A DNA stretch of 63,676 bases from Candidatus Kaiserbacteria bacterium GW2011_GWA2_52_12 (GTDB taxonomy: Bacteria; Patescibacteriota; Minisyncoccia; Phycocordibacterales; UBA2100): assembly GCA_001004345.1 (NCBI GenBank), contig LCQW01000001.1, forward strand, positions 1 through 63,676. Reading direction: 5' to 3'. A program made the position numbers and the translations under genes. Below the pieces are notes generated by a model. That model was not told where the DNA came from and did no database searches. It was given only the letters and a program-made list of their open reading frames with translations. Within the stretch, counting starts at the first letter, position 1. Each line of letters opens with the position of its first letter. Positions 6,833 through 54,759 of the stretch are shown here, piece after piece.

Positions 6833-8443
6833 TCACTTGGAACGGTTGTACTCCGCACGAAGCGCATCTGCAACCAGTTTTTTTTGCGCGGTGAATTCAC
6901 TCGTAAATTCACGGTTCCCCGGCTTCATATTCGTTCCGGAGAGAAATACCCGCGCATCGGCGCGTGTGCCGATGCGCACCAGATCGCCGATCAGGAGGGC
7001 TTCGTCGATATCATGCGTGATGAAGAGTGCGGTGATGCCGCCCCTCACATTTTCGGAGTAGAACTCTTGCATGGACCTTCTTGTGATCGCATCAAGTGCC
7101 CCGAATGGTTCGTCTAAGAGAAGAATTGTCGGCCGATAAGCGAGCGCCGAGGCTATGGCCAAACGTTGTTTTTGGCCACCGGAGAGATCGGCCGCGAGTG
7201 TGTGTGCCATGTTCAGAAGATCAAAGCGGTGCAGCATATCGCACACGCGCTCTTTGTCGCTCATGCTCGGGTGCGGTACTCCAAGCATGGCGTTGTCCCA
7301 TACCGTCATATGCTCGAACACCAACACTCCTTGAAAGACGACGCCTATTTTTGCGCATGGCCTTGTGAGGATCTCATGACCGATCTTCACTTCACCTTGG
7401 ATGGTGAAATTGGCGGACATGAAGTGGCCAATGGAGCGCATGAGCGTCGTTTTGCCGCATCCACTTTGACCGACTATGGAAAGCGTAGTGCCAGCGGGTA
7501 TGGTAAACGTTACGTTCTCGATGACCGGCACATTGCAATAACTCGCAAAGAGCCGACATATCGAGAGCGTCTCCGTCGAGTCCGCGTACACATGTGCGTT
7601 TCCGGAATCGAGTAACCCGACGAGGCGCCGCACTTTTTTCTCAAGCAAGTTCTCGCGGAGCCGTGCGATCTCGTTCCACAGGACCCTGAAGAATTGATCG
7701 AGCAGCAGTCCGATGAGCGCCATGATAACGACCGATGCCATCATGGTCGCGAGATCACCGACGTCGTACGAGCGGAAGATACGATTGCCTATGCCTTCGC
7801 TCCACCACCGGCCTGTCGAGCGCTCGTATACGCCGCTCATTTCTACGACCGCGACAGCTATGAGCGCGAGCGAGAGTGATGCACGGATAGCCGTCATGAT
7901 CTCCTTATGGATCGTAGGGATAATGACGCTGAATAGTTTCTTAAACCGGGAAATATTCAGCACCTGCAATCGCCAATCAATACGGTCAGAGATATTTTTT
8001 GCCGCATCATGCACGATGATCCACGATACAGTGCATGCGACCCAGCCGATGAGAAAAAATTTTCCCGACTCTTCGATGCCGAACACGAAGAGTGTGAGCG
8101 GCAAGAGAGCAATGAATGGAATGCCGCGGCAAAAGACGAAGAGACCCTCGAAGGTAAAACGAGCGAAATGCACGCGGCCCGTGAAGAGCCCACATGCGAT
8201 ACCGGCCGTCGTGCCGAGCGAGAATCCGATCGCCCAGCGTGAGAGTGAGACGAATATATCTTGGCCGAGCGTTCCGCTTTTCGCTTGGCGGACTACCGCC
8301 GAGCAGATCTCGGCAACGGTAGGGAAGCCGAGCGTAAGCGCGAGTGTTTGAAGCGCGACCCCCAAGAGAATGATGGTGAGCGCAGCCTTCACTGCGCTCA
8401 CCAGGAAACGTCTGCCGAGCGGCAGAAGTGTGGCTGTGCGCAT
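6833..8443 (-). CDS. Fused ABC importer permease (N-terminal) and ATP-binding domain (C-terminal), NitT/TauT-like
   Basis: About 270 aa of multi-TM permease are followed by Walker A GQSGCGKTT, signature LSGGQKQRLAIA and Walker B ILLLDEPFGALD in one ORF. Confidence 0.8.
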   Translation of the reverse strand: MRTATLLPLGRRFLVSAVKAALTIILLGVALQTLALTLGFPTVAEICSAVVRQAKSGTLGQDIFVSLSRWAIGFSLGTTAGIACGLFTGRVHFARFTFEGLFVFCRGIPFIALLPLTLFVFGIEESGKFFLIGWVACTVSWIIVHDAAKNISDRIDWRLQVLNISRFKKLFSVIIPTIHKEIMTAIRASLSLALIAVAVVEMSGVYERSTGRWWSEGIGNRIFRSYDVGDLATMMASVVIMALIGLLLDQFFRVLWNEIARLRENLLEKKVRRLVGLLDSGNAHVYADSTETLSICRLFASYCNVPVIENVTFTIPAGTTLSIVGQSGCGKTTLMRSIGHFMSANFTIQGEVKIGHEILTRPCAKIGVVFQGVLVFEHMTVWDNAMLGVPHPSMSDKERVCDMLHRFDLLNMAHTLAADLSGGQKQRLAIASALAYRPTILLLDEPFGALDAITRRSMQEFYSENVRGGITALFITHDIDEALLIGDLVRIGTRADARVFLSGTNMKPGNREFTSEFTAQKKLVADALRAEYNRSK

Positions 8444-8521: not shown

Positions 8522-9631
8522 TCAAATAAAATCGTTGACGGGATCGTGGTATGCCGCCAAACTGTGGTCGCGCTTAAAGCCCTCGGCACCCATGTCTTCT
8601 GTGATCTGTGTATAGGGGCGCTGATACAAAAGCAAAAAATAACGAGAAGCGTGTTTGATTTTATTGTCACGATACTCGGCATCTTTTGTGTATTCATAGA
8701 TGAAATCTTTGACGATCCATTTGTAACTCTTCCAGGTACCTTTGATACGTTTGTCGAGATTGTTCATGCTCCAGAGCTGGAATTCCTCGGTTGCGAAGAA
8801 CGGTGCGTAATGTGTTCCAAAGTATTCGGGAGTGATCTTTTTGATATTTCGCGGACCGGCGTAGGAGAGAATGAACATATGGACGAGCTGCCATTTGAGA
8901 CAGAAATTGATCCACCACAGACGGTCGTGGTTCGTGATGAGCGGTATCGGCGCAACGGCGGCCAGCTTTTCAAACATGTCGATATAAAAGTTGGTTATAG
9001 CGCCATCTCCGGTGAGCGCATTCCATGTCGAGAAAAATGTGTCGCGGTTGTATGTTGCCTGAATGACCGATTCTCCATACATGTTGATAAATTTACCGCA
9101 CATATCGGATCCAAAGAGCTGATCATTGGATTCGCCATTCACGATGAGATGGTTTCCGCCAAAAAGGAAATACGGTGCCATGATGCCGGGTTCGACTCGA
9201 ATCTTGCCGTGGATATGATCGCGGTAAAAATCGGGATATTCCGTTATCGATTCTTCCGACAGTATGACGACGATATTTTTCTTTTGCTCCGGCGTGGCGT
9301 TTTTGAAAAGAGATACCAGCACACAGGTTGAATCGATGCCGCCGGACCAAAAGACGTATATCGTAACCCCCATTTTTTCTGCGCGTGTGAGGAGCTCTTT
9401 AGCGCGCTCATCGCAGATCTCCCCATAGGTTTTTTTTATCGGACGGAACGCAGGCATGGGGAACAGTGATTTCACTCGGACGGGCGTCCGTATCGTTTCT
9501 GTACGGTCGACGAACAGTACACCAGTGCCGTACATCTTAAAAAAATACGAAAATGTACGTATGCCGGCTAGTGCGGCGTTTATTTTATGCGGAACGATAT
9601 TGCAATCATAATAAACAAGATGATCGCTCAT
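8522..9631 (-). CDS. PP-loop (adenine nucleotide alpha-hydrolase superfamily) ATPase, AsnB/QueC-like fold, specific function unknown
   Basis: SGGIDST PP-loop motif in the context VFWSGGIDSTCVLVSL. There is a 4-nt start/stop overlap with the upstream ORF. Confidence 0.6.
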   Translation of the reverse strand: MSDHLVYYDCNIVPHKINAALAGIRTFSYFFKMYGTGVLFVDRTETIRTPVRVKSLFPMPAFRPIKKTYGEICDERAKELLTRAEKMGVTIYVFWSGGIDSTCVLVSLFKNATPEQKKNIVVILSEESITEYPDFYRDHIHGKIRVEPGIMAPYFLFGGNHLIVNGESNDQLFGSDMCGKFINMYGESVIQATYNRDTFFSTWNALTGDGAITNFYIDMFEKLAAVAPIPLITNHDRLWWINFCLKWQLVHMFILSYAGPRNIKKITPEYFGTHYAPFFATEEFQLWSMNNLDKRIKGTWKSYKWIVKDFIYEYTKDAEYRDNKIKHASRYFLLLYQRPYTQITEDMGAEGFKRDHSLAAYHDPVNDFI

Positions 9632-10305
9632 ACGGTACCGAGCGGCTGATGATACATTTCACCCAAAAAATATTTCAGTATCGAAGACAGATCTTCTTCA
9701 GTTGTCGCTTTTTTCACTTTATTAAAATATGTCATACGCATCAGTTCTGTTTGGGAGAGACGCTGATCAGTAAGCGCAGCTTTGAAAATAATGTCATCGG
9801 CCGCCTGTTTGAGTGGAATGCCCGCATAATCCGCGTATTGCACCACGTACGGTATTTCCATGGTCCTCGTCTCGTCATACCCGCAATCCCGGAATAGTAT
9901 CGCCTGCAATTTTTTGGATAGATAGATAGTGTCTTGCGAGGCAATGCCATACGAAGAATCGTATCGTGCTATGATTATGTTTCTCATGATGGGAAGGATG
10001 GTCGCACCTTTATGCATAGCAAGCTTCGATTTGTCGCGAAGCATATCTACGTTCGGTGATGGATTTTTCTTCACCACTCTAGATGCCGGATCGAACACCC
10101 ATTCCGGATACTGTTCGGGGGAGGTATCTTTTAGCGGCGATTCATTGAGATAATTGGGAATATTGATATTAAAAACTGCGAATGAGTGCGGAGTGCAATC
10201 AGTTAAAAATGCTATGACCCCGGGGAATCTATCGATGGCGAGGATCGCCTTTGAGGAGAAATCGAGCAATGCATGGGTGGGCATACGAGTAAAATGTTGA
10301 TTCAT
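9628..10305 (-). CDS. Hypothetical protein, translationally coupled to the PP-loop ATPase
   Basis: 225-aa ORF with no recognisable motif. Its stop overlaps the start of the next gene by 4 nt. Confidence 0.5.
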   Translation of the reverse strand: MNQHFTRMPTHALLDFSSKAILAIDRFPGVIAFLTDCTPHSFAVFNINIPNYLNESPLKDTSPEQYPEWVFDPASRVVKKNPSPNVDMLRDKSKLAMHKGATILPIMRNIIIARYDSSYGIASQDTIYLSKKLQAILFRDCGYDETRTMEIPYVVQYADYAGIPLKQAADDIIFKAALTDQRLSQTELMRMTYFNKVKKATTEEDLSSILKYFLGEMYHQPLGTV

Positions 10306-10350
10306 TATATATTGCCATTTTGTTTTATCAATGTATGTAAGCCGCGATGT

Positions 10351-10380
10351 AAAAAAAGAGCCGACCTCCTGGATCGGCTC
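10351..10380 (-). terminator. Rho-independent terminator ending the YcaO operon
   Basis: On the minus strand, a GAGCCGAtccaggaggTCGGCTC hairpin is followed by a T7 run, 6 nt after the stop of the 80-aa ORF. Confidence 0.65.
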
Positions 10381-10386
10381 AGTGAT

Positions 10387-10629
10387 CTAATATCTTCGGC
10401 AGTTCCGCACGTCTTGCGCCCATCGCGTGCGAAGGAGCGACAGCATCCCGGGCGGACATAACCCCGAACGTGGATATATTTTTTTTAGTGAGTTTCTATC
10501 GAAACCCACACTGCCATCGTCCCGGTATCCAAACCCCGGGACTGGGGCACGTTTATCCATGATCAGCTGCGCTGATGCGCCGCTGATCATGAGTACCGAA
10601 ACTAAAACAGCTGCGATTACCGTCCTCAT
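10387..10629 (-). CDS. Small secreted protein (80 aa, signal peptide), last gene of the YcaO operon
   Basis: MRTVIAAVLVSVLMISGASAQ signal-like N-terminus. The mature part is Gly/Asp/Arg-rich with 2 Cys. Confidence 0.5.
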   Translation of the reverse strand: MRTVIAAVLVSVLMISGASAQLIMDKRAPVPGFGYRDDGSVGFDRNSLKKIYPRSGLCPPGMLSLLRTRWAQDVRNCRRY

Positions 10630-10661
10630 TTCAGCCTCCTTTTGCTAACTGAAATTATAGT

Positions 10662-11960
10662 TCATTTTTTTTGAAAGTCAAGTGATTCGTCGGCAACGAT
10701 TTTTGATTTCCCGCGCGGAGTTTGCGTAATGTGTGCAACGATTTCGACGTCAATGACAATGTGCTGCCCGGTGATTGTACGCACCGATTCTCGAATGCGA
10801 TCGCGGTCCGATTCTTTGAAATACGGGCCCGGAATGATCCGCACTGCGAGCCGGTCTTCCGCGTGTTTTACCACTTGATATTGCAGCACGATATCCATAA
10901 AGCCGTCGAGCGCCCCGTCAAACTCAAGATGATGGATTTTTCTGCCGTCAAACGATAAAAATGCCGAGTATCTCCCCTCTACCCATATGCGCGGCGTCTC
11001 GAGGCCGCAGGCGCACTTCTCCCGTGTCAGCACACCTTGATCCCCGGTTTCATAGCGAATGAAGGGCATATTGTAGTTCATAAGATCGGTAACGATGATT
11101 CTGCCGCGCCGTTTTTCTTTTTGCGGGAATCCGCGCTCATCCACGACCTCGACTATGACGGACTCACTGTTCACGTGCATGCCGTCATGGTATTTACATT
11201 CAATCGCGGCGCTTCCGCAGAGCTCTATGAGGCCGTAATAATCGTATACTTCCGCGGAAAATGCTTCGGCGATAGTGCGGCGGGCGAGGGGGCCGAGCAT
11301 TTCTCCGAAGGGGACGACATACTTCGATACAAGCGCCGCCGCCGTTTTGTCGCTTTTTATAATACTCACCATTTCCAGAAGAATAGAGGGGAAAGTTGTG
11401 ATGATGTCCGGCTGAAAATCGGCCATTTCACGGAGCGCTTTTTTGGGATTCCGCCGAAAGTCGGATAAATTGATAAAAAGAAGGTTGTCGAACTTCGGGA
11501 ATTTGACGTCTATGCGGACAGTTTTAAAGGTCTTGAATACATTCATGTCGTGGCTGTCCCAATACAGAAAACGATATCGCGTAAAGTTCGAGAAATTGGG
11601 ATTAAATGTCGCAGTTCCGGCAAGAACAGAAAACGGTTCGCCCGAAGAGCCCGATGTATTTTTCCATACCATTCGGAGCAATCGGCTGGTATCCGTATAT
11701 TCCTCGACCGCCTTACCTCTGAAAAAATCTTTCATAATGATCGGTAATCGTTCAAAGTCTCCCATGCGGATAATTTCATCAGGACGTACACCATGTGCCG
11801 CATATAATTCGGCGTATACAGGGATAGAGCGAACGGCGTGCCTCACGATCTTTCGAGCATAGGATACCTGCCACTTCTCGATGGCGCGCGCACCGCGCAT
11901 GTGCAAAAAGAACATCCGATACCAGTTCAGCCGATTTTTGATCGTGCGAAAGAGGTGCAT
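10662..11960 (-). CDS. Adenylate-forming enzyme, PaaK / CapK / coenzyme F390 synthetase-like (copy 2)
   Basis: TSGSSGEPF (acyl-AMP P-loop-like motif), YYGLIE, YETGDQG and a C-terminal PRGKSKIV lysine motif. Confidence 0.7.
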   Translation of the reverse strand: MHLFRTIKNRLNWYRMFFLHMRGARAIEKWQVSYARKIVRHAVRSIPVYAELYAAHGVRPDEIIRMGDFERLPIIMKDFFRGKAVEEYTDTSRLLRMVWKNTSGSSGEPFSVLAGTATFNPNFSNFTRYRFLYWDSHDMNVFKTFKTVRIDVKFPKFDNLLFINLSDFRRNPKKALREMADFQPDIITTFPSILLEMVSIIKSDKTAAALVSKYVVPFGEMLGPLARRTIAEAFSAEVYDYYGLIELCGSAAIECKYHDGMHVNSESVIVEVVDERGFPQKEKRRGRIIVTDLMNYNMPFIRYETGDQGVLTREKCACGLETPRIWVEGRYSAFLSFDGRKIHHLEFDGALDGFMDIVLQYQVVKHAEDRLAVRIIPGPYFKESDRDRIRESVRTITGQHIVIDVEIVAHITQTPRGKSKIVADESLDFQKK

Positions 11961-11985
11961 GCTGTTATTTCATGATTATAGACAC

Positions 11986-13320
11986 TTAAAATGTACGAAC
12001 AAAGTATACGGCTTTACCGCTCGCAGCCGGCGGTATGTCGTCCACAATTTCCCACGTGATACGCACGGTGGGAAGCATTTTTTCCATGAGAGCTCTTTCC
12101 ATGGCCGCCTTTTGTTCATCGTACAGCTTGCCGGGGATGACTTTCACCGTGAACGCAAGAGGGGCTGTATGAACGATTTGATACTGGCGGATTGACTGGA
12201 AGAAGCGGTCGAAAACAGAAGCGAGTTCCAGAAGCGGAACTTTTCTTCCCCTCGTAAGTTCGATCATATGCGCTTCGCGTCCTTTCAGGCGCATCGTGCG
12301 CAGTGTGCGACCACATGTACAGGGTGTAGTGTCGATAGTGCCAAGATCTCCTGTAAAATATCGGATGAAGGGCATCACACGTTGTTCAAATGCGGTAACA
12401 ACGACGCGGCCTTCGTCTCCTGCGGGAGTGGAGTGTCCCTGTATGTCGATAATTTCAACGAGATATGATTCTTCGTTGATGTGGAGCTTGTGATGTTCGC
12501 ATTCAAATGCCAGCCAGCCTAATTCCTGCGCAGGATAGCATGTGTATATATTTGCACCGAAGGCCTCTGCCATCACGCCGCGCGCCTCGGGGAGCAGTTC
12601 TTCTCCTGTAGCAATTACGCCGCGAATGGGGAGGAATATATTTTTTTCGCGCATTACACGCGCAAGTTCCAAGAGCGGGGATACGAATCCATACAAAATA
12701 AAGCCTTTTTTGTGCGACGAAGCCAATGCGACAAAATCTTTAAATCGATGTCGTATGAAATTGTAACCGCCGATGAAAAAGAACGCATAGCTCGTGAACG
12801 CAAATCCTTGCCGTTCCCGAGCGCGCATGGAAATGACGGGGAAACGCCTGCCGCCGCCTGCAGTGCGCAGCATCCGCTCACAGAGAGCGTACATACGGAG
12901 CACGTAGCCGCGATCCTGATAAAAACGGAACGGCATTCCCGTCGAGCCAGACGTGCGATCCCAAAAACTTCCATTGATATACCGTTCATTCGTAATGTAC
13001 CCGACATCTCTATCGAGGAGGTTCTTTTTTGATGTGATAGGAAGTTTTGAAAGATCATCAGCGGCGAATACATAAGGATCTACACCTGATCGAGAGAAAA
13101 CGTCTCGCCAGAAAGGAACCATATTCGAGTCTCGTATCAAGGCGGCAATACGCTTTCTTGTTATCGTTTCGATACGTGCACGCGGCCAGTACTGGCTTTT
13201 TAGGAGTACGTGCATATCGAAAAAGAACGGGATGCGCCTGAAAAGGCGATACGAAAAATGTATCGTCCACAGAGAATCATTCCGCAATCCTTTTTTGAGC
13301 AAGACATGTTCCGCAAACAT
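11986..13320 (-). CDS. Adenylate-forming enzyme, PaaK / CapK / coenzyme F390 synthetase-like (copy 1)
   Basis: TSGSTGMPF, YFTGDLG and a C-terminal ASGKAVYF motif. It is a paralogue of the adjacent gene. Confidence 0.7.
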   Translation of the reverse strand: MFAEHVLLKKGLRNDSLWTIHFSYRLFRRIPFFFDMHVLLKSQYWPRARIETITRKRIAALIRDSNMVPFWRDVFSRSGVDPYVFAADDLSKLPITSKKNLLDRDVGYITNERYINGSFWDRTSGSTGMPFRFYQDRGYVLRMYALCERMLRTAGGGRRFPVISMRARERQGFAFTSYAFFFIGGYNFIRHRFKDFVALASSHKKGFILYGFVSPLLELARVMREKNIFLPIRGVIATGEELLPEARGVMAEAFGANIYTCYPAQELGWLAFECEHHKLHINEESYLVEIIDIQGHSTPAGDEGRVVVTAFEQRVMPFIRYFTGDLGTIDTTPCTCGRTLRTMRLKGREAHMIELTRGRKVPLLELASVFDRFFQSIRQYQIVHTAPLAFTVKVIPGKLYDEQKAAMERALMEKMLPTVRITWEIVDDIPPAASGKAVYFVRTF

Positions 13321-13385: not shown

Positions 13386-14075
13386 TCAAGTACTCCCGAT
13401 TGCTATCGCATACACAGGTTGCTCGATTGAATTGTCGAGGTCCAATATGTCGATCACAGCCTTGTCGTCAAATCTCGCCAGAGGACATGTGCCGAGATTC
13501 AGCGCCGTTGCGACGAGTAGTATATTTTGTGCCATGTGTCCGGCTTCGAGCATGCCCAGATAGTATCCAAAATCGCCGTACTTTTCACAATTACGATCCC
13601 ATACCGCGGTGAACATCAGGGTGAGAGGTGCGGCGTTAGCCCATGTATTTGCTGAATTATTTGAAAAAATATTCAATGGGTCTGGAATATTCCACAATCG
13701 TTCAAGTGCGTGCCCGACAACTCTGTAATGAAATGCGCCGCGCGTGAGCGATTCAACATTTTGTGTAAAGAGGTACGTTTCTATCGGGAACACCGCACCA
13801 CCCGAAGGATAGTGACGTGAGCGGCCTTCGCGAACGCCGAGCGCATGCCCAAGTAGCGTCCCGATATCACCTGCGGATAGAGGCACAGAAGAATCGAGTG
13901 ACCGACTAGAAGCCCGCTTCTTCAGCACCTCATCGAGGCCGACTCGGAGCGGGGAATACCCAAGCGATATCTGCTCCATCCGCGGGTAGCTTTTACTTTC
14001 TTTCACCACGTCGACACCCGTGCCGTTTTTGCACGTTCGCAAATGCTCGTGAATGGCGTACGGAAGTTTTTTCAT
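13386..14075 (-). CDS. SagB-type (nitroreductase-fold, FMN) dehydrogenase
   Basis: KRASSRS..., HYPSGGAVFPIETYLF, GAFHY and AGHMAQNILLVATALNLGTCPL are typical SagB/nitroreductase blocks. An ATGA overlap joins it to the YcaO stop. Confidence 0.8.
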   Translation of the reverse strand: MKKLPYAIHEHLRTCKNGTGVDVVKESKSYPRMEQISLGYSPLRVGLDEVLKKRASSRSLDSSVPLSAGDIGTLLGHALGVREGRSRHYPSGGAVFPIETYLFTQNVESLTRGAFHYRVVGHALERLWNIPDPLNIFSNNSANTWANAAPLTLMFTAVWDRNCEKYGDFGYYLGMLEAGHMAQNILLVATALNLGTCPLARFDDKAVIDILDLDNSIEQPVYAIAIGST

Positions 14076-15490
14076 GCGAACGGGTGCGGCTCATCGAGGT
14101 ACGGTGAGGAACGAGGCGTATATCCGAACATGCGAGCGACGCGCTCCCTTCGGGGCCCGCCGCCGTATTGATATCTCTCATTTTGATGGATTGGCAGGAG
14201 CTCTGGCATTACGACCATCTCTATATGCCACGGCGAAACATTCTCGGGAGATTCTGTATAGGAGATGGCGGCACATTCGTACTTATTTTTCCCGCACCAC
14301 TCCGTGATGAGCGACAAGTGCGCCTCCGGCGAAACGGCGATGTCTGTTCCGGAATGTTCCACGAGCGGTCCGCTCGTCAAAAAAGCGAGTTTCTTGTATC
14401 TGTCGCCGATAGCCCAGTACTGCGAGCGCTCCGTATGTACGACATCGCATGCTTTTTTTTCCTCGCCGAACGACTTCGTCTCTCTCTGCCGCCGAATGTT
14501 ACGCCGCATGCGGAGCGCTTCGAGCGCGGCATGTTCAACGGCATGTGAAAGATTGCGGTGCGCACAGAGCCCCATCGACCACGGAGGCATTTTCGCATGC
14601 TCGTCGTGGACAACGACACATACCGTATATGCCGGTGCGTCCGACGGCAAGAGCATCGCGTCGACGGAGAGCCGATAGCGGGCGCACTTTGCAAGGAGCG
14701 CTCTCACGTCGGAGGATTTTTTGTTGAATTTCGCGAGGTCGATGCGTGGGGGCGAAATTTGATTGAGCCACGTGATCATAAAGGCATCCCGCTCGATGAT
14801 CTCGAGCGCTCCGCCAAGGCGGGCAAATGCTTGCGACGGGCCCGCCGCCATGCCGGTCGTGATGGGTTCAAGAATGACCGGCTCGTGGCCCTTTCTGAAA
14901 TTCTCGATACCGTATTTGCCGCTCGCTACCTGTGCGGGAACCCATACCGGTTTGCCGCTCACAAGCGATTGCCCGCAAACCCATCGATATTCCGCATCGG
15001 GGTGCAATGTAAGGCGTTGAATATTCGCGCGCTGCTCCCTGGTAAATCCGGCGAATTGTTCCGGCAATAGGACGTGCCCTTGCGCAAGAATATCGCGTGC
15101 ACTCGCACGTACGACATCGGAAAATTCTACGGTGTACCACAGATGCCGCTCGACTGCTTCTGCGAGCGTAGATATGAGTGCCGAGCGATCACTCCCCCGT
15201 GACATCCCTCCCGCGACGCCGCCCTCGTGCACGAGAGTGGCTCGCCATTGGAAAAATCGCGGTTCGTCGGGAAAACCACCAACGGGCCCGTATGAGTGTA
15301 TTATTTTTGCCGCTCGCAGCCGCTCGGCCACTTCGAGCAGATCGACAAGGTCTTCACGCCCGAAAGGTATACGCGCCCGCTCAAATACGAATGTTCCTCC
15401 AAGGCGACGCTCTAAAAAACGAACAAATGCTTGGATGCCTGGTTTGGATTTCCCCCAGAGAACCTCGAAGGAGATCGCGTCTATAAGCAT
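14072..15490 (-). CDS. YcaO-domain cyclodehydratase-like protein
   Basis: STLAEAVERHLW, LEPITTGMAAGPSQAFARLGGALEIIERDAFMITWLN and a Pro-rich C-terminus resemble YcaO family proteins. No fused E1-like domain is seen. Confidence 0.8.
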   Translation of the reverse strand: MLIDAISFEVLWGKSKPGIQAFVRFLERRLGGTFVFERARIPFGREDLVDLLEVAERLRAAKIIHSYGPVGGFPDEPRFFQWRATLVHEGGVAGGMSRGSDRSALISTLAEAVERHLWYTVEFSDVVRASARDILAQGHVLLPEQFAGFTREQRANIQRLTLHPDAEYRWVCGQSLVSGKPVWVPAQVASGKYGIENFRKGHEPVILEPITTGMAAGPSQAFARLGGALEIIERDAFMITWLNQISPPRIDLAKFNKKSSDVRALLAKCARYRLSVDAMLLPSDAPAYTVCVVVHDEHAKMPPWSMGLCAHRNLSHAVEHAALEALRMRRNIRRQRETKSFGEEKKACDVVHTERSQYWAIGDRYKKLAFLTSGPLVEHSGTDIAVSPEAHLSLITEWCGKNKYECAAISYTESPENVSPWHIEMVVMPELLPIHQNERYQYGGGPRRERVARMFGYTPRSSPYLDEPHPFA

Positions 15491-15552
15491 GGTGCGGATT
15501 ATATATCAACACCTTCCATTTGACAGAGTTTCGGGTATGCATACACCCGAGA

Positions 15553-15558
15553 TATAAT
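15553..15558 (+). promoter_or_regulatory. TATAAT -10-like hexamer 6 nt upstream of the precursor ATG (possible leaderless transcript)
   Basis: TATAAT at 15553-15558, ATG at 15565, and no SD motif. The -35 region is weak (TTCGGG). Confidence 0.3.
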
Positions 15559-15564
15559 AAGATT

Positions 15565-15843
15565 ATGTTTCTAGCTCATAAAGTGCGAAACGCGGCAAGA
15601 TCGTTTACCCGCAAGACGCGTATCAAACTCCTACTTGTTTTAGGGTTTGCTTCTATTTTCTTTATTGCCGCTCCGCGCGTTCTTCACTACGATCAGACCC
15701 CTGTGGGACCCGATGCGGCGCATGCCGATGCCCCCGATTGCGGTGATTGCGGTTGCGGCGCCCCTGACTGCGCCTCTGACTGCGCCTCTGACTGCGCCCC
15801 TGACTGCGCCTCTGACTGCGGCTCCTGTGCCTGTGGTAAATAG
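15565..15843 (+). CDS. Candidate RiPP (TOMM/azole-type) precursor peptide with signal-anchor-like N-terminus and Cys-rich repetitive C-terminal core
   Basis: MFLAHKVRNAARSFTRKTRIKLLLVLGFASIFFIAAPRVL...APDCGDCGCGAPDCASDCASDCAPDCASDCGSCACGK. It has 10 Cys in the last 35 aa and lies divergent, 74 bp from YcaO. The ORF-track TTG start at 15520 is less likely. Confidence 0.65.
   Translation: MFLAHKVRNAARSFTRKTRIKLLLVLGFASIFFIAAPRVLHYDQTPVGPDAAHADAPDCGDCGCGAPDCASDCASDCAPDCASDCGSCACGK
15766..15825 (+). repeat. Five tandem copies of a 12-bp unit GACTGCGCCTCT (in-frame, encoding D-C-A-S/P)
   Basis: Copies run 15766-77, 15778-89, 15790-801 (one substitution), 15802-13 and 15814-25 (degenerate). The repeat lies inside the precursor ORF. 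Confidence 0.95.
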
Positions 15844-15915: not shown

Positions 15916-16728
15916 ATGTTTAGTGGACGCGCGCAATCGAGTGGATCAATTTTGTCGCTGCGCGATCTTGTTGTTATCGTCGTCGCACTCGGACTGCTTG
16001 GATTTTTTGATGGGGCCATCGGATACACAGTCGGTGCGTATGAACGTGCTATGTTCGCCGTCGCGCCGAGTGCGCAGCGTGCTGCTTCGTATGGGGAGCG
16101 TCATATCGACGCGCGGCAGTTTCCGGCTTTGTACGATATAGACCGCGCAGAATATTATTATGAGGAACTCGAAAAAATTGATCCGACATATCCATATCTC
16201 TATCACCAACGTGCGCGCATAGAATTTTTGCGTGGACATTTCATTATTGCGCTTTCGTACATAAACAAGGAGATCGAGACTCGTGGCGCAGATGAACCAA
16301 ACACCTATTACGTCCGCGGTCTTATCGAAGGGTATATGGGGCGCTACAAACAAGCAGCCGAGGACTATGCCACATACTTGAAGTCCGATCCATACAACTG
16401 GGCGGCGCTCAATGACTATGCGTGGGTGCTTCTGAAGGCAGGTCGACCCGATAAAGCGTTGGAAGTGATCAGTCGAGGACCCGCGGGTCACCAAATACAA
16501 AATGCATGGCTCCTGAATTCAAAAGCGATAGCGTTGTATGAACTTGGCCGGATGCCCGAGGCTCTTGAGGCGGCGAAACAAGCATTGACCATGGTCGGAA
16601 ACGTCAAAGAAAAGAATTGGCTCACGGCATATCCCGGCAATGATCCGAAGATCGCTGGAGAGGGGATTGCGGCACTCAAACGATCCATAGAAACGAACAT
16701 GAAAGCTATCGAACTCGCAATAAAATAG
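15916..16728 (+). CDS. Membrane-anchored TPR-repeat protein
   Basis: N-terminal hydrophobic helix, then repeated 34-aa Ala/Tyr/Leu-patterned units (YYVRGLIEGYMGRYKQAAEDYATYLKSDP, NDYAWVLLKAGRPDKALEV, ...). Confidence 0.7.
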   Translation: MFSGRAQSSGSILSLRDLVVIVVALGLLGFFDGAIGYTVGAYERAMFAVAPSAQRAASYGERHIDARQFPALYDIDRAEYYYEELEKIDPTYPYLYHQRARIEFLRGHFIIALSYINKEIETRGADEPNTYYVRGLIEGYMGRYKQAAEDYATYLKSDPYNWAALNDYAWVLLKAGRPDKALEVISRGPAGHQIQNAWLLNSKAIALYELGRMPEALEAAKQALTMVGNVKEKNWLTAYPGNDPKIAGEGIAALKRSIETNMKAIELAIK

Positions 16729-16827: not shown

Positions 16828-17985
16828 ATGAACTTGTATTATAAAATATTCGCAGGTGTCGTAGTAATAGGTTGCGTATCTGCCGCGGCTATCTACTTAT
16901 ACTTACAGCAACAGAAGCAAAAAGACGATGCGGCAGTGCAGGCAATAACAACGAACTTACTCGAAGCGAAGTACAGAGATGCAATACAAGAAACGGAAAC
17001 ATTACGTGCCAACAAACAAGAATCGGACCCACTCTACGCAATAGATCTTGAAATAGCGTCAATAGCAAGTTTCAGCGAGCTTGCTTTAAATCGCGCGGAT
17101 GCAGTGTCATCCGAGGAGTGGATCAACGTTATTCACATGGCAAAAAAACAGCTTGAATCCACGCGGGATCCATACCTTCAAGCAGGAGCCGTCGATCTAT
17201 TACTGCTTGTACTCCACCAAACGAACGATCCGGTTGTTGCCGCAGAAATCTTTGCAGGTGAACCCTTCAATAAACTTCGCGGACAGGATCGGAGTACCTC
17301 GCTCAAAAATCTGGCGACATATTCGATTGAACTATACCCGACAGCACCCCCCTACATCATGCTTGCGCGTGTACGGGCTGATGCGATAAATTATCTCCTC
17401 AAGCCCGGCTCAATCGTGCCGATTGACAATGCTAGTAGCACAGGCCTTATTTCGCGGGCTAATCAAATTGAAGAAAATGTAAAAAATGCGGAAATGGCTG
17501 CAAAAACTACGAAGGCCCGTGACGGGCGATCACCATTTTCCCTACTCACATACCCGTGGAACACAATATGGTCTGCGTATGCTCTTTCGCAGGCGGCGAG
17601 GGTTGACAAAAAGTATTGGTTGGAGACTGAAAACATGTTTAAGGACGCTATTTTATATACAGAGACGACGGTAGATAAAAATGGAAAGCCATATCCAGCT
17701 CTCCTGCAGCTTTCGGCGAAAGCACGCCTATATTACGCTCGCGGATTGTATGATATTTTTGGCGATGCGCGCGCGTCTGATATCACGAATACGCTCGATA
17801 CTTTAAGTGCGATGATTGAACGTCAGCCGGAGTTATACACGGCACAACAGCGACTTTTTGATCTCATACTCAAGAATCGCCATAGATCTGAAGTAACTCG
17901 CCATTGGTATGAAGAATTCGCCGGTCTTGCGAAATACTCGTCTTCATTTGCGTCGTATCTTAAGAGTAGAGGCTGGGATCTGTGA
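16828..17985 (+). CDS. Membrane-anchored hypothetical protein (385 aa)
   Basis: N-terminal TM helix (IFAGVVVIGCVSAAAIYLYL) and a helical-repeat-like remainder. No family recognised. Confidence 0.55.
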   Translation: MNLYYKIFAGVVVIGCVSAAAIYLYLQQQKQKDDAAVQAITTNLLEAKYRDAIQETETLRANKQESDPLYAIDLEIASIASFSELALNRADAVSSEEWINVIHMAKKQLESTRDPYLQAGAVDLLLLVLHQTNDPVVAAEIFAGEPFNKLRGQDRSTSLKNLATYSIELYPTAPPYIMLARVRADAINYLLKPGSIVPIDNASSTGLISRANQIEENVKNAEMAAKTTKARDGRSPFSLLTYPWNTIWSAYALSQAARVDKKYWLETENMFKDAILYTETTVDKNGKPYPALLQLSAKARLYYARGLYDIFGDARASDITNTLDTLSAMIERQPELYTAQQRLFDLILKNRHRSEVTRHWYEEFAGLAKYSSSFASYLKSRGWDL

Positions 17986-17989
17986 TTGC

Positions 17990-18427
17990 ATGAAGCATAT
18001 GCGCGAATATACAAAAAGCATTCTCCGACACATACGCAAAGAATTATTTTTTGTTATATTACTTTGCATCGTCTCTCTTGCGCTCGTTGCCTACATTCCG
18101 CATTCCGGCGATCGGCCCTCCCTGTCGCCTGAAGTGAAATTTGCCGATGCATCGCCAGCGGGCCTTTCCATTGTTCCTGCGTCCTGCCCGTCTGACCCGC
18201 ATTATACCAACGAATGCTCCTGCCCCACTTCGATAGAAACACCATGGCAATCGAGCGGGCTTCTTCTATATAGTGCCGCGACACGCTACATTACACAGCA
18301 GGCGAATAGTATCTGCGTAACCAATAATTCAGGCAGCCATTATTTCATCCCCGCCAACACCACAGGCGAACTGCAATCCTTTTACAACGCCGCACCGGGT
18401 CTTGGTGTGAGTGTATATTCGCCGTAG
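17990..18427 (+). CDS. Membrane-anchored hypothetical protein
   Basis: ATG 17990 lies 5 nt after the previous stop. It has a TM helix (FFVILLCIVSLALVAYI) and a Cys-containing extracytoplasmic part. Confidence 0.5.
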   Translation: MKHMREYTKSILRHIRKELFFVILLCIVSLALVAYIPHSGDRPSLSPEVKFADASPAGLSIVPASCPSDPHYTNECSCPTSIETPWQSSGLLLYSAATRYITQQANSICVTNNSGSHYFIPANTTGELQSFYNAAPGLGVSVYSP

Positions 18428-18454
18428 ACCTTCTCAGCATATACTTCTATCATC

Positions 18455-18928
18455 ATGAATGGGATCTTTTCTCGCCACTATTTCACATCATTTCTTGCGT
18501 TCCTGTGCGCTGTTGTCATTGTTGTATTCGTGCTCGCACCGGTAGCTGCTCGCGCGCAAACCGGTTCGCAGGATATTGGCACCGCGATACGCGCGGCGCT
18601 CTTCTCTGACTCGCGGGCTGCTCAAATGTCCCCGCAGCAATTCGATGCGGTGGTTGCCGCTCTTACATCAGAAGCGGTAAAGCAGGGAATGACCGCGCAC
18701 GATATCACATGGAACATGGTTGCATCGGCGGTTGATTTCGCGGAAGCAGCATGTGATTCGTATCTGTGCACCCTCAACGACGCATTCGGATTTTCAGGCT
18801 CCAACATGATGATACCCATCGGGCTCGGATTTTCCTCCGCGCTTCTCCTGCTCATAATTGGCACAATGAGGGGGATGCACCGTACGCCAGCTGTTCCGCC
18901 GTCTGTAGCACGCGCACCGGTGCAATAA
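18455..18928 (+). CDS. Hypothetical protein with N-terminal signal/TM and C-terminal TM helix
   Basis: FLAFLCAVVIVVFVLAPVAARAQ signal-like segment and a C-terminal MMIPIGLGFSSALLLLIIG helix. Confidence 0.5.
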   Translation: MNGIFSRHYFTSFLAFLCAVVIVVFVLAPVAARAQTGSQDIGTAIRAALFSDSRAAQMSPQQFDAVVAALTSEAVKQGMTAHDITWNMVASAVDFAEAACDSYLCTLNDAFGFSGSNMMIPIGLGFSSALLLLIIGTMRGMHRTPAVPPSVARAPVQ

Positions 18929-36652: not shown

Positions 36653-39469
36653 ATGCCTCCGTTGCAGATGGAGCGGCTGAAGCCCGCTCTCCCCGAGAAA
36701 TTCAAATCTCCGCAGGAAGAACTTGCGTATTTGCGACAGCGCGTGGCGGAGAAGGAACAGGAGCTTGAAAGCGCGCCGAACCGTTTTGAAAAAGACCGCA
36801 TCGCAAAGCGTGAAATAGAACAGTACGGCGCGACGCCACAGGCGCAGGTGCTGCACGAGGCAGCCATCATGCCGCAGCACGATATCCTGCAGCATGTCCT
36901 CAAACTCGAGCCGGAGGACCACGACACGAAGATCGATGAACTCTTGAAGATCGTTTCGGAAAAAGGCATCCGCAATGCGCTCTCGATCGTCGCACGATTC
37001 GGCAATGCGCACCTCGAAGACGATCTCCATCGCGCCCTCGTGCGCTACGTTGCCGAAGGAATGCCGGATCACGGCATGGCGCCTCCCGAGCAGGTCAGAA
37101 AAGCACTCAACCTCGTTCTTTTTGAAATTCATCCGCAGGCGCACGGAGAGGGCGACCAAAAAGAGATCGCGCAGCACAAACTGGAGCAGCTTCTGTCATC
37201 ATCCGAGCAGCTGTACGCCGGACTCATTTCGCTTATTGAAGAAGGTGAGGGGTATTCGCTTGAAATAGCCGTCCCGCAGGGGACCGAAGAGGCCTCGCTT
37301 TACCTCGCCGTGCCGCATCAACGGAAAGTTCTTGCGGAACGCCTCATCTCATCGGTGTTTCCCAACGCCCATATCGTCGAGAGTCGCGGCGATTATAACA
37401 TTTTCAATTTTCAAGGCGCACATGCAGCATCCTATGCCGTGCTTGCCGATCATCCATCGCTTCCACTCAAGACGCCGGAGATGTTCGAACATGATCCGAT
37501 GAATATCATGCTCGCGGCATTCGCAAAGATCGCGAAGCACGGCGAGGGCGCCGCGCTGCAGATCACCGTCGGGACGGAAGGGGATCGGTACAATCACCAT
37601 TACAAAAAAATCCTGCGCGAGCTTGAGAAAGGCAGGTCGTACCGCGAAGCGCTGAAGATACCGGAGACGGAGCTCGGCGAGGCGGTTCGTGATCTTGCGA
37701 AGCAGCTGTTTTCATCCAAAGAGCAGCAACAAAAAGAGCTCGATAGGCAATTCCGCAAAACAGCGGATCAGGTGTCGACCGAAGAAATAAGCCGCAAAGT
37801 GAAGACACGCATCGCGCCGGTTTCCATCCGCCTCGTCACGTCGGCACCCACCCATGCACGCGCCGTCGATCTCTTGCGCAATCTGAAAGCGCCGTTTACC
37901 CAATATGACGACTCAAAAGGGAATCGACTTCTCTTTAAGAACGTGGGGAGCTGGAGCATGAGCAATTTTCTCCGCGATTTTACCTACCGCACATTCGATC
38001 ATTCCATCGCGATGCCGCTGTCACTCGCAGAATTGACCGCGATGTACCACTTTACCGCCGAGCGCGTCACGACCTCGCGCGAGCTCAAGCGCTCGTTCGG
38101 CAAACAAGCTCCCGCGCCGGTCGAAACTCCAGCGAACGGGATAACCATCGGCATCAACCGGTACGGCGCGGATGAAACAAAAGTTCATTTCGGGGAGAGT
38201 GATCGCCTGCGTCACTGCTATGTCATCGGACAAACCGGTACCGGAAAGACCGGGTTTCTCAAAAATCTCATCCGTCAGGACATGGAGAACGGCGAAGGAA
38301 TCGCATTTATCGATCCGCACGGTAACGACATTGAGGACGTGCTCGCCATGGTTCCGCCCGAACGCGCCGAGGATGTCGTGTATTTCGACCCCGCGTATAC
38401 GGCTCGTGCAATGGGACTCAATATGCTCGAATACGACCGTTCGCGGCCGGAGATGAAGACGTTTGTCGTCGACGAAGTATACGGCATTTTCCGCAAGCTC
38501 TATGCCGACGTGCCGGAGGCGTTCGGGCCTATGTTCGAGCAATACTACCGCAATGCCGTGCAGCTTGTGGTCGAAGATCCCGAATCGGGGAGCACGTTCG
38601 TCGAAATTCCGCGCGTATTTGCCGACCCCGCTTTTCGCAATCTGAAACTCTCGCGCTGCAAAAATCCCATCATAGTACAATTTTGGCGCAAGATTGCCGA
38701 GCAGGCGCAGGGGGACCCATCGCTCGAGAACGTCGCCCCCTATATCACGAGTAAATTCGACGTCTTTCTTACCAATGACATCATGCGACCGATCGTGTCG
38801 CAGGAAAAATCGGCGTTCAACTTTCGCGAGATCATGGATGGCAAGAAAATTTTCCTCGCCAATCTCTCAAAAGGCCGCCTCGGCGACAGGAACACCTCGC
38901 TTTTGGGCCTCATTCTCGTATCCAAATTCCTGCAGGCGGCATTCTCGCGCGTCGATACGCATGGAGCACTTCCGGTGTTCTACATGTACATCGACGAATT
39001 CCAGAATTTCGCCACACCATCCATCTCGACCATCCTCTCCGAGGCGCGAAAATACAACCTTTCGCTCACGATCGCGCACCAATTCATCGCGCAGCTCGAA
39101 GAGCCGATCCGCGACGCGGTCATCGGCAACGTGGGCACCAAAGCGGCGTTTCGTATCGGCACGACCGATGCCGAATTCCTCGAAAAGCAGTTTGCGCCGA
39201 TATTTGGCGCACAAGACCTCGAAAATCTACCCAACCGCACCGCCGTCCTTTCATTGCTGGTCAATGGTGTGCCGGCGCGGCCATTCACCATCGGCACGGA
39301 AAATCTGCCGCACATGAACTACGAGAACGTAGCTGCTCTCAAGGAGCTTTCGTACACTACCTACGGCCGCCCGCGCGAGGAAGTGGAAGAAGAGATCCGC
39401 ATCAAATTCGACGCCAGCTACGGCAAGAAACCCGCGGCAGAAGCACCCTCCACACCGCTGTATCAGTGA
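36653..39469 (+). CDS. Large P-loop NTPase, VirD4/TraD/TraG coupling-protein-like C-terminal half with ~500-aa uncharacterised N-terminal half
   Basis: Walker A GQTGTGKTGFLKNL, Walker B-like FYMYIDEFQNF, and ARKYNLSLTIAHQFIAQL as in T4SS-type DNA-translocase ATPases. Confidence 0.6.
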   Translation: MPPLQMERLKPALPEKFKSPQEELAYLRQRVAEKEQELESAPNRFEKDRIAKREIEQYGATPQAQVLHEAAIMPQHDILQHVLKLEPEDHDTKIDELLKIVSEKGIRNALSIVARFGNAHLEDDLHRALVRYVAEGMPDHGMAPPEQVRKALNLVLFEIHPQAHGEGDQKEIAQHKLEQLLSSSEQLYAGLISLIEEGEGYSLEIAVPQGTEEASLYLAVPHQRKVLAERLISSVFPNAHIVESRGDYNIFNFQGAHAASYAVLADHPSLPLKTPEMFEHDPMNIMLAAFAKIAKHGEGAALQITVGTEGDRYNHHYKKILRELEKGRSYREALKIPETELGEAVRDLAKQLFSSKEQQQKELDRQFRKTADQVSTEEISRKVKTRIAPVSIRLVTSAPTHARAVDLLRNLKAPFTQYDDSKGNRLLFKNVGSWSMSNFLRDFTYRTFDHSIAMPLSLAELTAMYHFTAERVTTSRELKRSFGKQAPAPVETPANGITIGINRYGADETKVHFGESDRLRHCYVIGQTGTGKTGFLKNLIRQDMENGEGIAFIDPHGNDIEDVLAMVPPERAEDVVYFDPAYTARAMGLNMLEYDRSRPEMKTFVVDEVYGIFRKLYADVPEAFGPMFEQYYRNAVQLVVEDPESGSTFVEIPRVFADPAFRNLKLSRCKNPIIVQFWRKIAEQAQGDPSLENVAPYITSKFDVFLTNDIMRPIVSQEKSAFNFREIMDGKKIFLANLSKGRLGDRNTSLLGLILVSKFLQAAFSRVDTHGALPVFYMYIDEFQNFATPSISTILSEARKYNLSLTIAHQFIAQLEEPIRDAVIGNVGTKAAFRIGTTDAEFLEKQFAPIFGAQDLENLPNRTAVLSLLVNGVPARPFTIGTENLPHMNYENVAALKELSYTTYGRPREEVEEEIRIKFDASYGKKPAAEAPSTPLYQ

Positions 39470-50016: not shown

Positions 50017-50407
50017 TGGTGGAGGTGGGGAGAATCGAACTCCCGTCCAAAGAAAAGTAAGTGTATGTGTCTACGAGGCGTAGGACATCTGATTTTGTTT
50101 AAGAACGTTGCATATGAGATGAACAGAAACACAACATCCCGATTCCGAAGTCTTAGATGCATAGTGGACGCTATTCATCAGTGCTTGAAATTTTTTACGC
50201 CCAGCCACGCTTGATCAAGCGTCGACGTGGTGGACGGAACTTAGGCTATAAGAGCGTAAGCTGGCTGCAGGTCTGCCAATTGAATTGGCGAGAGCACTGC
50301 CCGTGCTACTTTGTTCGCACTTAGGTTTTTTGAGCATTTTGAGAGAGGTGCTCACTCTCGCCGCGCGCATACATATACCGATTTCCTTGTCGAAGCCAGT
50401 CACCCCC
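50017..50407 (-). ncRNA. ssrA: tmRNA (transfer-messenger RNA)
   Basis: 5' GGGGGTGACTGGCTTCGACAAGG...; 3' T-arm GGGAGTTCGATTCTCCC plus CACCTCCACCA. The acceptor stem has a G3-U pair. An internal tag ORF ends ...CAGCCAGCTTACGCTCTTATAGCCTAA. The gene lies adjacent to smpB. Confidence 0.9.
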
Positions 50408-54685: not shown

Positions 54686-54759
54686 CCGCCCTTAGCTCAA
54701 TTGGTTAGAGCACCGAGCTTATACCTCGGGGGTTCTTGGTTCGAGTCCAAGAGGGCGGA
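54686..54759 (+). tRNA. tRNA-Ile(UAU)
   Basis: Full cloverleaf: acceptor CCGCCCT/AGGGCGG; D-arm GCTC-AATTGGTTA-GAGC; anticodon arm CCGAG-CTTATAC-CTCGG; T-arm CTTGG-TTCGAGT-CCAAG; discriminator A. CCA is not encoded. Confidence 0.85.

Follow-up and report, generated by a model that had tools for sequence, protein, structure and literature searches.

A probable azol(in)e-peptide precursor family with signal-anchor-like leaders, encoded beside YcaO genes in Patescibacteria

Several described families of peptides that are ribosomally synthesised and post-translationally modified (RiPPs) resemble the locus considered here. Microcin B17 (McbA with McbBCD) and other linear azol(in)e-containing peptides or thiazole/oxazole-modified microcins (LAPs/TOMMs), such as streptolysin S (SagA with SagBCD), have small precursors with a conserved leader and a low-complexity core rich in Gly, Ser and Cys; in LAPs/TOMMs a YcaO protein and a SagB/McbC-type flavin mononucleotide (FMN) dehydrogenase are encoded next to the precursor. 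The heterocycloanthracin/sonorensin TOMM precursors (TIGR03601) have cores of short Cys-containing repeats, and their variants differ by indels of whole Cys-Xaa-Xaa units (Haft 2009, PMC2674419). The repeat number of the thiazole/oxazole-peptide core varies between strains, and the genes are often missed by gene callers (PMC2674419). Bufferins, which are RiPP metallophores modified by MNIO enzymes, carry a Sec signal peptide, acquire Cys-derived heterocycles in the cytoplasm and are then exported by Sec, an arrangement that has been called rare (PMC11626156). Here we describe a 92-residue open reading frame (ORF) in a 63,676-nucleotide stretch of DNA (the window) from Candidatus Kaiserbacteria bacterium GW2011_GWA2_52_12 (assembly GCA_001004345.1, contig LCQW01000001.1, positions 1 to 63,676), a member of the Patescibacteria or candidate phyla radiation (CPR). 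The ORF has a comparable organisation of leader and core and, judged from sequence, is very probably the substrate peptide of the neighbouring YcaO and SagB enzymes, which are predicted to form thiazoles.

The genomes of CPR bacteria are tiny, and very few pathways for natural products have been recognised in them. Searches covering about 8.3 million papers turned up no description of this precursor family, just passing remarks on YcaO proteins in CPR RiPP clusters. According to published surveys these clusters "mainly encode YcaO proteins", and one survey guessed that their role is thioamidation of methyl-coenzyme M reductase (PMC12153355).

The initial annotation of this DNA, made from the letters alone, had read the ORF as a RiPP-like precursor with a signal-anchor N-terminus and a core built from tandem repeats. 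Its translation is exact (92 codons, then TAG), and its counts agree with ours: 10 Cys in the tail after A54, seven of them preceded by Asp; five 12-bp units of GACTGCGCCTCT in tandem; and a TATAAT separated from the ATG by 6 nt, in a stretch that lacks any Shine-Dalgarno-like 4-mer. The features of the precursor gene are as follows.

15565..15843, plus strand: precursor peptide gene, 92 residues and a stop codon (from translation; leader homologues found by hidden Markov model (HMM) in 59 loci)
15553..15558, plus strand: TATAAT hexamer resembling a -10 box, for a probable leaderless transcript (from sequence and a family-wide enrichment of TAnnnT)
15565..15627, plus strand: leader n-region, residues 1-21, net charge +7 (from translation)
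15628..15672, plus strand: leader hydrophobic h-region, residues 22-36 (LLLVLGFASIFFIAA), a predicted membrane or signal segment (from hydropathy)
15673..15726, plus strand: spacer, residues 37-54 (PRVLHYDQTPVGPDAAHA), with a conserved P-R at its start and A-H-A at its end
15718..15735, plus strand: junction motif A52-H53-A54-D55-A56-P57, near-invariant, the presumed boundary of leader and core (from an alignment of 30 leaders)
15727..15840, plus strand: core, residues 55-92, acidic and Cys-rich, with 10 Cys, 8 Asp and 1 Lys (from translation)
15766..15825, plus strand: five tandem 12-bp units encoding (D-C-A-S/P)n (from Tandem Repeats Finder, TRF; a 36-bp, three-unit deletion allele occurs in locus L001)

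The n-region contains seven Lys or Arg and no acidic residue, while LLLVLGFASIFFIAA is hydrophobic without interruption (mean Kyte-Doolittle hydropathy 2.45 over the best 17 residues and 2.73 over the best 15).

Is the ORF a genuine gene? A direct protein search with the 92-residue sequence matched only its own 80-residue allele. We therefore took 158 loci surrounding relatives of the YcaO and examined them in all six frames for precursor ORFs; a leader profile was built from 19 leaders and then used to scan the YcaO-anchored loci. Precursor homologues were found in 59 loci, with leader homology up to E=1e-22, and their occurrence follows the similarity of the local YcaO to the window enzyme. 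Counting only loci with at least 450 bp upstream, a precursor is present in 33 of 33 loci whose YcaO scores at least 300 bits, in 15 of 19 at 200-300 bits, in 4 of 46 at 120-200 bits and in none of 37 at 60-120 bits (Sorangium, actinomycetes and others). The ORFs lie upstream of the YcaO gene, nearly always divergently and about 150 bp or less from its start. For example, in the closest other species (locus L002, YcaO 69% identical) an uncalled ORF of 85 residues, containing KLLLIAGLASIFFVAAPRVF and further on SAHADTSCAGCDCGCDCACCGE, occupies the same divergent position.

The initial annotation would have given up its precursor reading if related YcaO genes had no conserved, homologous short ORFs next to them. 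That such ORFs accompany the close YcaO relatives and disappear at the distant ones supports the reading instead. Because YcaO relatives in dozens of further genomes have leader-homologous ORFs beside them, the precursor ORF is, on this comparative evidence, a real and conserved gene, beyond chance. Gene finders nevertheless often fail to call it, L002 and L175 being two examples, and the 20 database members retrieved by the leader profile are unnamed or labelled "hypothetical". No Pfam or NCBIfam model describes the family, and searches with the window peptide and nine relatives gave no NCBIfam match at E<=1, TIGR03601 included. The YxzE-like putative bacteriocin family (PF25184) was considered and rejected: the best relative reaches 24.2 bits against a gathering threshold of 40, and the window peptide does not match. 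The resemblance is compositional, consisting of a hydrophobic segment and a tail of Gly, Ser, Asp and Cys, and YxzE is itself uncharacterised.

Nearly all of the 124 YcaO homologues with E<=1e-10 derive from metagenomes, and the named hosts are metagenome-assembled genomes of Patescibacteria/CPR (Paceibacteria, Parcubacteria, Kaiserbacteria, Nomurabacteria, Adlerbacteria and others). The identical precursor protein is found on 18 contigs, mainly from Rifle aquifer groundwater, including assembly GCA_001004425.1.

What do the members of the family have in common? The initial annotation had remarked on an atypical leader with a basic n-region and a hydrophobic helix, and this proves to be a trait of the whole family (n=52, here and for the lengths and charges that follow). 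The n-region has a median length of 17 residues and a median net charge of +3, and the hydrophobic segment has a median of 19 residues (range 15-25; the window member has 15). Pro followed by Arg or Lys usually stands right behind the segment, and a spacer of 13-28 residues (median 20) ends in [V/I]-A-H-A, which is followed by D-[A/V]-P. Among the 30 aligned leaders H53 and A54 never vary, and conservation reaches at least 90% at A52, D55 and G27. The cores are 14-133 residues long (median 41); Gly makes up 27% of their residues, Ser 18%, Cys 14%, Asp 12% and Ala 10.5%, with 322 acidic residues (Asp and Glu) against 18 basic ones (Lys and Arg). The residue before a core Cys is Gly in 109 cases, Ser in 92, Asp in 49 and Ala in 35; since Gly and Ser are commoner in this place, the all-Asp Cys context of the window peptide is an extreme of the family.

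Leaders and cores have evolved differently. Among related precursors the leaders are 48-94% identical with almost no indels, whereas the cores are 31-77% identical with many indels, and some genomes contain 2-4 paralogous precursors with differing cores. A conserved leader joined to a diverging, indel-rich core is the classical evolutionary signature of RiPP precursors. In L173 (5371-7920, minus strand), L026 and L013, paralogues with near-identical leaders and differing cores flank the gene for an anchored helical protein. In L007 (1-714, minus strand), about 90 ordinary, non-repetitive residues continue beyond the Gly/Cys-rich core up to the contig end; this extension may be a fusion or a frameshift.

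The two enzyme genes next to the precursor are the following.

14072..15490, minus strand: divergent YcaO cyclodehydratase, 472 residues, 74 bp from the precursor (Pfam PF02624, 2.7e-45)
13386..14075, minus strand: SagB-type FMN dehydrogenase, 229 residues (TIGR03605, 124.4 bits against a cutoff of 78.4)

The YcaO protein has the motifs expected for binding of ATP and Mg, AEAVER and LEIIERD (ExxER and ExxERD; E110/E113/R114 and E229/E232/R233), and both are invariant in 40 homologues, as is a C-terminal PHP. It aligns over the full length of TIGR03604 (model positions 5-377 of 377), in divergent form. Its AlphaFold2 model is confident (predicted local distance difference test, pLDDT, 92.6), and the best fold matches are the cyanobactin heterocyclases LynD and TruD and the peptidase MusD, with a TM-score of about 0.70 on the query; archaeal and Escherichia coli YcaOs and McbD follow. 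A profile alignment places residues 97-333 on LynD 403-640 (profile E about 1e-14). From sequence and model, the window protein corresponds to the C-terminal YcaO domain alone, lacking the RiPP recognition element (RRE) and the E1-like domain. An RRE within its own N-terminus was considered and rejected, as residues 1-96 belong to the YcaO fold in the same way as in LynD. A separate partner was also sought: no E1-like (SagC/McbB) or Ocin-ThiF-like RRE partner was matched by Pfam or NCBIfam among 10 neighbouring window proteins, and no E1-like/ThiF-like, TfuA-like, protease or exporter gene was found in the window cluster or in five annotated neighbourhoods (L002, L004, L173, L174 and L175). 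SagB is encoded adjacently in 49 of the 59 precursor loci, many of which are cut by contig ends. Its presence argues for conversion of azolines to azoles over thioamidation.

The core repeats are the other distinguishing property. In the array of GACTGCGCCTCT there is no mismatch in units 1, 2 and 4, one in unit 3 (Ser to Pro) and two in unit 5. TRF reports the array at 15758-15824 with a period of 12, 5.6 copies, 92% matches and a score of 113, which makes it by far the top tandem repeat of the window (all others score 59 or less). Tandem repeats are detectable in the core DNA of 30 of 55 distinct family genes and include ACGDSS x3, DSGT x4 with GADA x7, SCGS/SCDS and DGCGSA. A short allele was found on a 601-bp contig from another sample (ERZ27254733; L001), which is 100% identical apart from an in-frame deletion of 36 bp. 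Exactly three units are lost, so that APDCASDCASDCAPDCASDC becomes APDCASDC, and the deletion is flanked by two copies of a 27-bp direct repeat; this geometry is what slippage or unequal recombination would produce. The core length changes are all in frame.

The initial annotation had proposed that slippage makes the number of modifiable units hypervariable, and had suggested a comparison of copy number among strain variants. That comparison yields two lengths: five units, unchanged on 18 contigs from many samples, and three units fewer on one contig. Variation in repeat number is borne out by the deletion allele, the 30 repeat-bearing cores and the concentration of indels in the cores; rapid variation is not, because the five-unit allele is constant over 18 contigs against a single contig with the short one.

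How might such a precursor be processed? We infer heterocycle formation, export and cleavage from sequence. The 92-residue product would leave the ribosome before its hydrophobic segment could meet the co-translational targeting machinery, and the core would consequently be accessible to cytoplasmic enzymes that depend on ATP and FMN. The ATP-dependent YcaO would cyclodehydrate core Cys, and possibly Ser, to azolines in the cytoplasm, and the FMN-dependent SagB would oxidise these to azoles. The leader may be recognised by YcaO itself or by membrane-anchored tetratricopeptide repeat (TPR) and helical proteins that are conserved with it, because the YcaO is a bare catalytic domain and the E1-like/RRE partner is missing. 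The basic n-region and hydrophobic helix would then insert with the N-terminus inside and the C-terminus outside, as a signal anchor of the Sec or YidC type, exposing the acidic, nearly Lys/Arg-free polyazole tail outside the cell. The tail may remain tethered, or it may be freed by signal peptidase I (SPase I) or an unlinked protease at A-H-A|D-x-P. In-frame core repeats, here the 12-bp repeat encoding D-C-A-S, would vary the number of modifiable units by slippage or recombination. We consider it likely that the ORF encodes the precursor of a LAP pathway specific to Patescibacteria/CPR which operates in this manner.

Which proteins could take over recognition of the leader? Two genes downstream of the precursor are relevant.

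15916..16728, plus strand: TPR protein with an N-terminal membrane anchor (transmembrane, TM, residues 18-36; Pfam TPR families)
16828..17985, plus strand: membrane-anchored all-helical protein, 385 residues, unknown function

The anchored TPR protein is encoded in 33 of the 59 precursor loci, many of them cut by contig ends, and also in a sister clade. Members of the 385-residue family are N-terminally anchored and all-helical, have the C-terminus ...SPEF..L.S.GW.. and in most loci come right behind the precursor; neither Pfam nor PDB yielded a relative, and profile searches matched only membrane-anchor segments. An AlphaFold2 model of the 385-residue protein made without an alignment (pLDDT 56.8) was too poor and was not used for a fold search. 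These anchored TPR and helical proteins are the most plausible candidates to supply the leader binding or docking that is missing.

The n- and h-regions of the window peptide agree with a Sec signal (+7 over 21 residues; h-region of 15 residues). A short c-region of about 3-7 residues with AxA is absent, the A-H-A lying 18 residues past the h-region. A canonical SPase I site at A-H-A was rejected on the same grounds for the family, in which the distance is 13-28 residues (n=52). The Lys/Arg-poor, acidic composition of the cores fits a translocated tail. The complete picture, in which CPR bacteria make a hitherto undescribed class of peptides that have a signal-anchor leader, are heterocyclised in the cytoplasm by SagB and a partner-less YcaO, are guided by TPR and helical scaffolds in place of an RRE, are flipped by Sec and have an acidic polyazole tail of repeat-adjustable length displayed or shed, is put forward tentatively, as something that could well be otherwise. 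If it is true, a tail on the surface of episymbiotic CPR cells could serve in metal binding, in contact with the host or in antagonism.

A number of observations weigh against a LAP pathway with exported product. The YcaO scores 175.9 bits, below the cutoff of 219.25 for TIGR03604 (TOMM SagD family), and the RRE-containing partner is missing, which leaves substrate recognition unexplained. Pro-Arg/Lys directly behind the helix and an A-H-A placed 13-28 residues further on are a non-canonical geometry for SPase I. Asp-Cys is a minority context in the family, to our knowledge Asp immediately before Cys is unusual among known cyclodehydratase substrates, and some family cores hold just 0-2 Cys. 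The short allele is known from a single 601-bp contig and might be an assembly artefact.

Other explanations account for parts of these data. A spurious ORF, or a low-complexity artefact of the DNA tandem repeat, might be suspected in view of its shortness, its lack of a Shine-Dalgarno sequence, its low-complexity 3' half, its lack of Pfam and NCBIfam matches and the frequency with which gene finders leave it uncalled, as in L002 and L175. Conservation refutes this: leader homology to E=1e-22 over some 60 loci, a fixed position and orientation, invariant H53 and A54, and length changes that all preserve the frame. An alternative named by the initial annotation was a membrane-anchored, metallothionein-like metal-binding peptide; as an unmodified chelator it would lie next to YcaO and SagB by coincidence. 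The tail is indeed very rich in Cys and Asp with almost no Lys or Arg, and the N-terminus resembles a membrane anchor. However, the strict tie of the adjacent, divergent gene to one YcaO clade, falling from 33 of 33 loci to 0 of 37 with distance, is hard to reconcile with coincidence; several family cores are Gly/Ser/Asp repeats with just 0-2 Cys, which would be intolerable for a thiolate chelator, and the spacing of Cys is not conserved. The unmodified chelator is thus highly improbable; the modified product may still bind metals.

Two further explanations retain the YcaO substrate and change what happens to it. The YcaO might make a thioamide or an amidine, or cleave the peptide, since the YcaOs that lack an E1-like partner include enzymes making thioamides or amidines as well as the peptidase MusD, since the PDB matches comprise MusD and thioamidating YcaOs of archaea, and since the window protein falls under the TOMM SagD cutoff. 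We hold this to be very unlikely, in that a SagB-type azoline dehydrogenase above its curated cutoff is part of the operon and recurs in 49 of 59 loci, no TfuA-like gene was found in the neighbourhoods examined, heterocyclases are the best matches in fold and sequence, and the cores are rich in Cys and Ser. A stronger rival, though still an unlikely one, accepts YcaO and SagB modification and takes the helix for a cytoplasmic recognition element of the TPR protein, the helical protein or YcaO, the product staying inside the cell or leaving by an unlinked route. Unusual leader recognition is required in any case without an RRE partner, TPR proteins bind extended or helical peptides, a basic residue follows directly on the helix, and the spacing of A-H-A is ill-suited to SPase I. 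Against this stand the classical signal-anchor signature of all 52 members (a basic n-region and 15-25 uninterrupted hydrophobic residues), the Lys/Arg-depleted tail, which suits translocation, the membrane anchors of the co-conserved partners themselves, and the lack of a linked dedicated exporter.

The initial annotation had also suggested a leaderless mRNA. Comparison lends this support: a TAnnnT hexamer lies 5-10 nt upstream of the predicted start in 23 of 50 distinct family upstream regions (shuffled sequences gave 6.8 +/- 2.3, with a maximum of 15 in 1000, and displaced positions gave 3-6), and a Shine-Dalgarno-like 4-mer is present in 1 of 50. Of the hexamers TATAAT and TATACT are the most frequent, and a gap of 6 nt to the start is seen most often. 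It is plausible on this pattern that the precursor mRNA is leaderless and transcribed from the -10 box 6 nt before the ATG. As a special property of the precursor the idea was rejected, as in several operon-first genes of the window the ATG is likewise preceded by a TATAAT at 6-7 nt. In the divergent YcaO gene a TATAAT of its own (15498-15503, minus strand) stands 7 nt upstream of the ATG. TATAAT-like hexamers 6-9 nt before operon-first starts, with no Shine-Dalgarno sequence, are found there and at 36653, 43383, 34037, 18455 and 24427, which suggests that leaderless mRNAs may be widespread in the CPR lineage of the window.

Beyond the conserved genes, the surroundings of the precursor contain the following.

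17909..18928, plus strand: two small membrane or secreted proteins, 172 and 157 residues (TM segments; in 11-14 of 59 loci)
11986-13320 and 10662-11960, minus strand: two PaaK/F390-synthetase-like (CapK_C) adenylating enzymes
9628-10305, minus strand: unknown protein of 225 residues
8522-9631, minus strand: protein with a PP-loop SGGIDS motif

Four of these proteins (the two PaaK-like enzymes, the 225-residue protein and the one with the PP-loop) were rejected as core components, being present in just 6-8 of 59 loci, and are accessory at most; the genes at 8522-13320 may serve optional tailoring that acts, for instance, on Asp or on carboxylates at the C-terminus. A gene for a fused permease and ATPase of the ATP-binding cassette (ABC) type (6833-8443) was rejected as the exporter: it belongs to the importer type (BPD_transp_1), adjoins a gene for an NMT1-like binding protein and co-occurs with the precursor only within the organism of the window. 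The 157-residue neighbour has a normal AxA site (A-R-A) immediately behind its h-region. In the 172-residue neighbour (17909-18427, plus strand; residues ~46-90) K-F-A-D-A-S-P stands about 15 residues past the TM helix. Kinship of this motif with A-H-A-D-A-P was dismissed as coincidence, since it is kept in L002 and close relatives only and distant loci are unalignable.

Related loci show some variation in arrangement. A sister clade (L137, L142-L144, L155, L158-L160; for example L143, 898-1155, plus strand) has a YcaO about 28% identical to that of the window and precursors whose leader is hydrophobic, whose motif is K-[AT]-A-H-A and whose Gly/Cys/Ser core resembles that of microcin B17 (NNNGGGGGGG-CSGSGCGCGGCASG...). 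Its operon comprises the precursor, a 407-residue anchored helical protein, SagB, YcaO and anchored TPR proteins, and the length of the precursor poly-Gly varies between contigs. In L175 (ERZ24907706 "Nordella_1" contig_2172; YcaO 51% identical) the cassette lies among genes for an integrase, a relaxase, a TrwB-like coupling protein and a DNA methylase; the core of its precursor, an uncalled ORF, is unusually long. This setting hints that a cassette of YcaO, SagB and precursor can travel on a mobile element. L165 (GCA_001004425.1, LCRA01000008.1, 1852-3109) has the identical precursor, a TPR gene truncated to 111 residues and, after it on the opposite strand, a Peptidase_M50 gene, unlike the window; the difference may be a rearrangement or a mis-join. 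In L004 (8398-9787; ANAN16-1_SAMN03202994 scaffold_1926), from the organism of the window, the YcaO is called as two pieces of 308 and 145 residues. The split is a frameshift or sequencing error, as the 472-residue gene is intact in the window and on other contigs. Elsewhere in the window there are a transfer-messenger RNA (tmRNA) gene (50017-50407, minus strand; Rfam, 127.8 bits) and plus-strand tRNA genes at 54686, 59158, 61202 and 63614, the last one cut by the window end.

These results identify a probable substrate for CPR YcaOs: a widespread, unannotated and often uncalled precursor family. If confirmed, it would extend the use of general secretion by RiPPs, as in bufferins, to the YcaO world and point to a new mode of leader recognition. 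The family also provides a natural example of RiPP core diversification driven by repeats, and a pattern for mining: the leader profile together with the A-H-A-D-x-P motif, upstream of a bare YcaO.

How does the locus compare with described systems? Microcin B17 offers one parallel: its McbD is a structural match of the window YcaO, and the sister-clade cores (AAHAS-NNNGGGGGGG-CSGSGCGCGGC...) are strikingly McbA-like. In contrast to microcin B17 and other LAPs, the E1-like/RRE partner (McbB/SagC) and a dedicated ABC exporter or leader protease are lacking here, the leader has a membrane- or signal-type helix and a junction of the form A-H-A-D-x-P, the cores are highly acidic, and the YcaO lies under the TIGR03604 cutoff of the class. 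LynD and TruD (PDB 4v1t and 4bs9) are closest to the YcaO domain in structure and sequence, but they carry about 300 additional N-terminal residues (RRE and E1-like, leader-binding) that are absent from the window enzyme. Heterocycloanthracin differs in that the unit here has four residues, D-C-A-S, the leader is hydrophobic and anchor-like, the ThiF-like cyclodehydratase component is missing and the hosts are CPR and not Bacillus. Bufferins are alike in their N-terminal secretion-like element, their lack of a dedicated exporter and a possible metal-binding role. Their enzymes, however, are MNIO/DUF692 and DUF2063 proteins instead of YcaO and SagB, and they have a canonical signal cleaved by SPase and folded cores of about 60 residues, whereas here an AxA lies 13-28 residues beyond the helix and the core is repetitive and disordered. 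The chemistry class of LAPs/TOMMs and repeat-variable cores are already known; the new elements are the anchor- or signal-type leader, a pathway that dispenses with the RRE partner, exporter and protease, the anchored TPR and helical partners, and the CPR host range.

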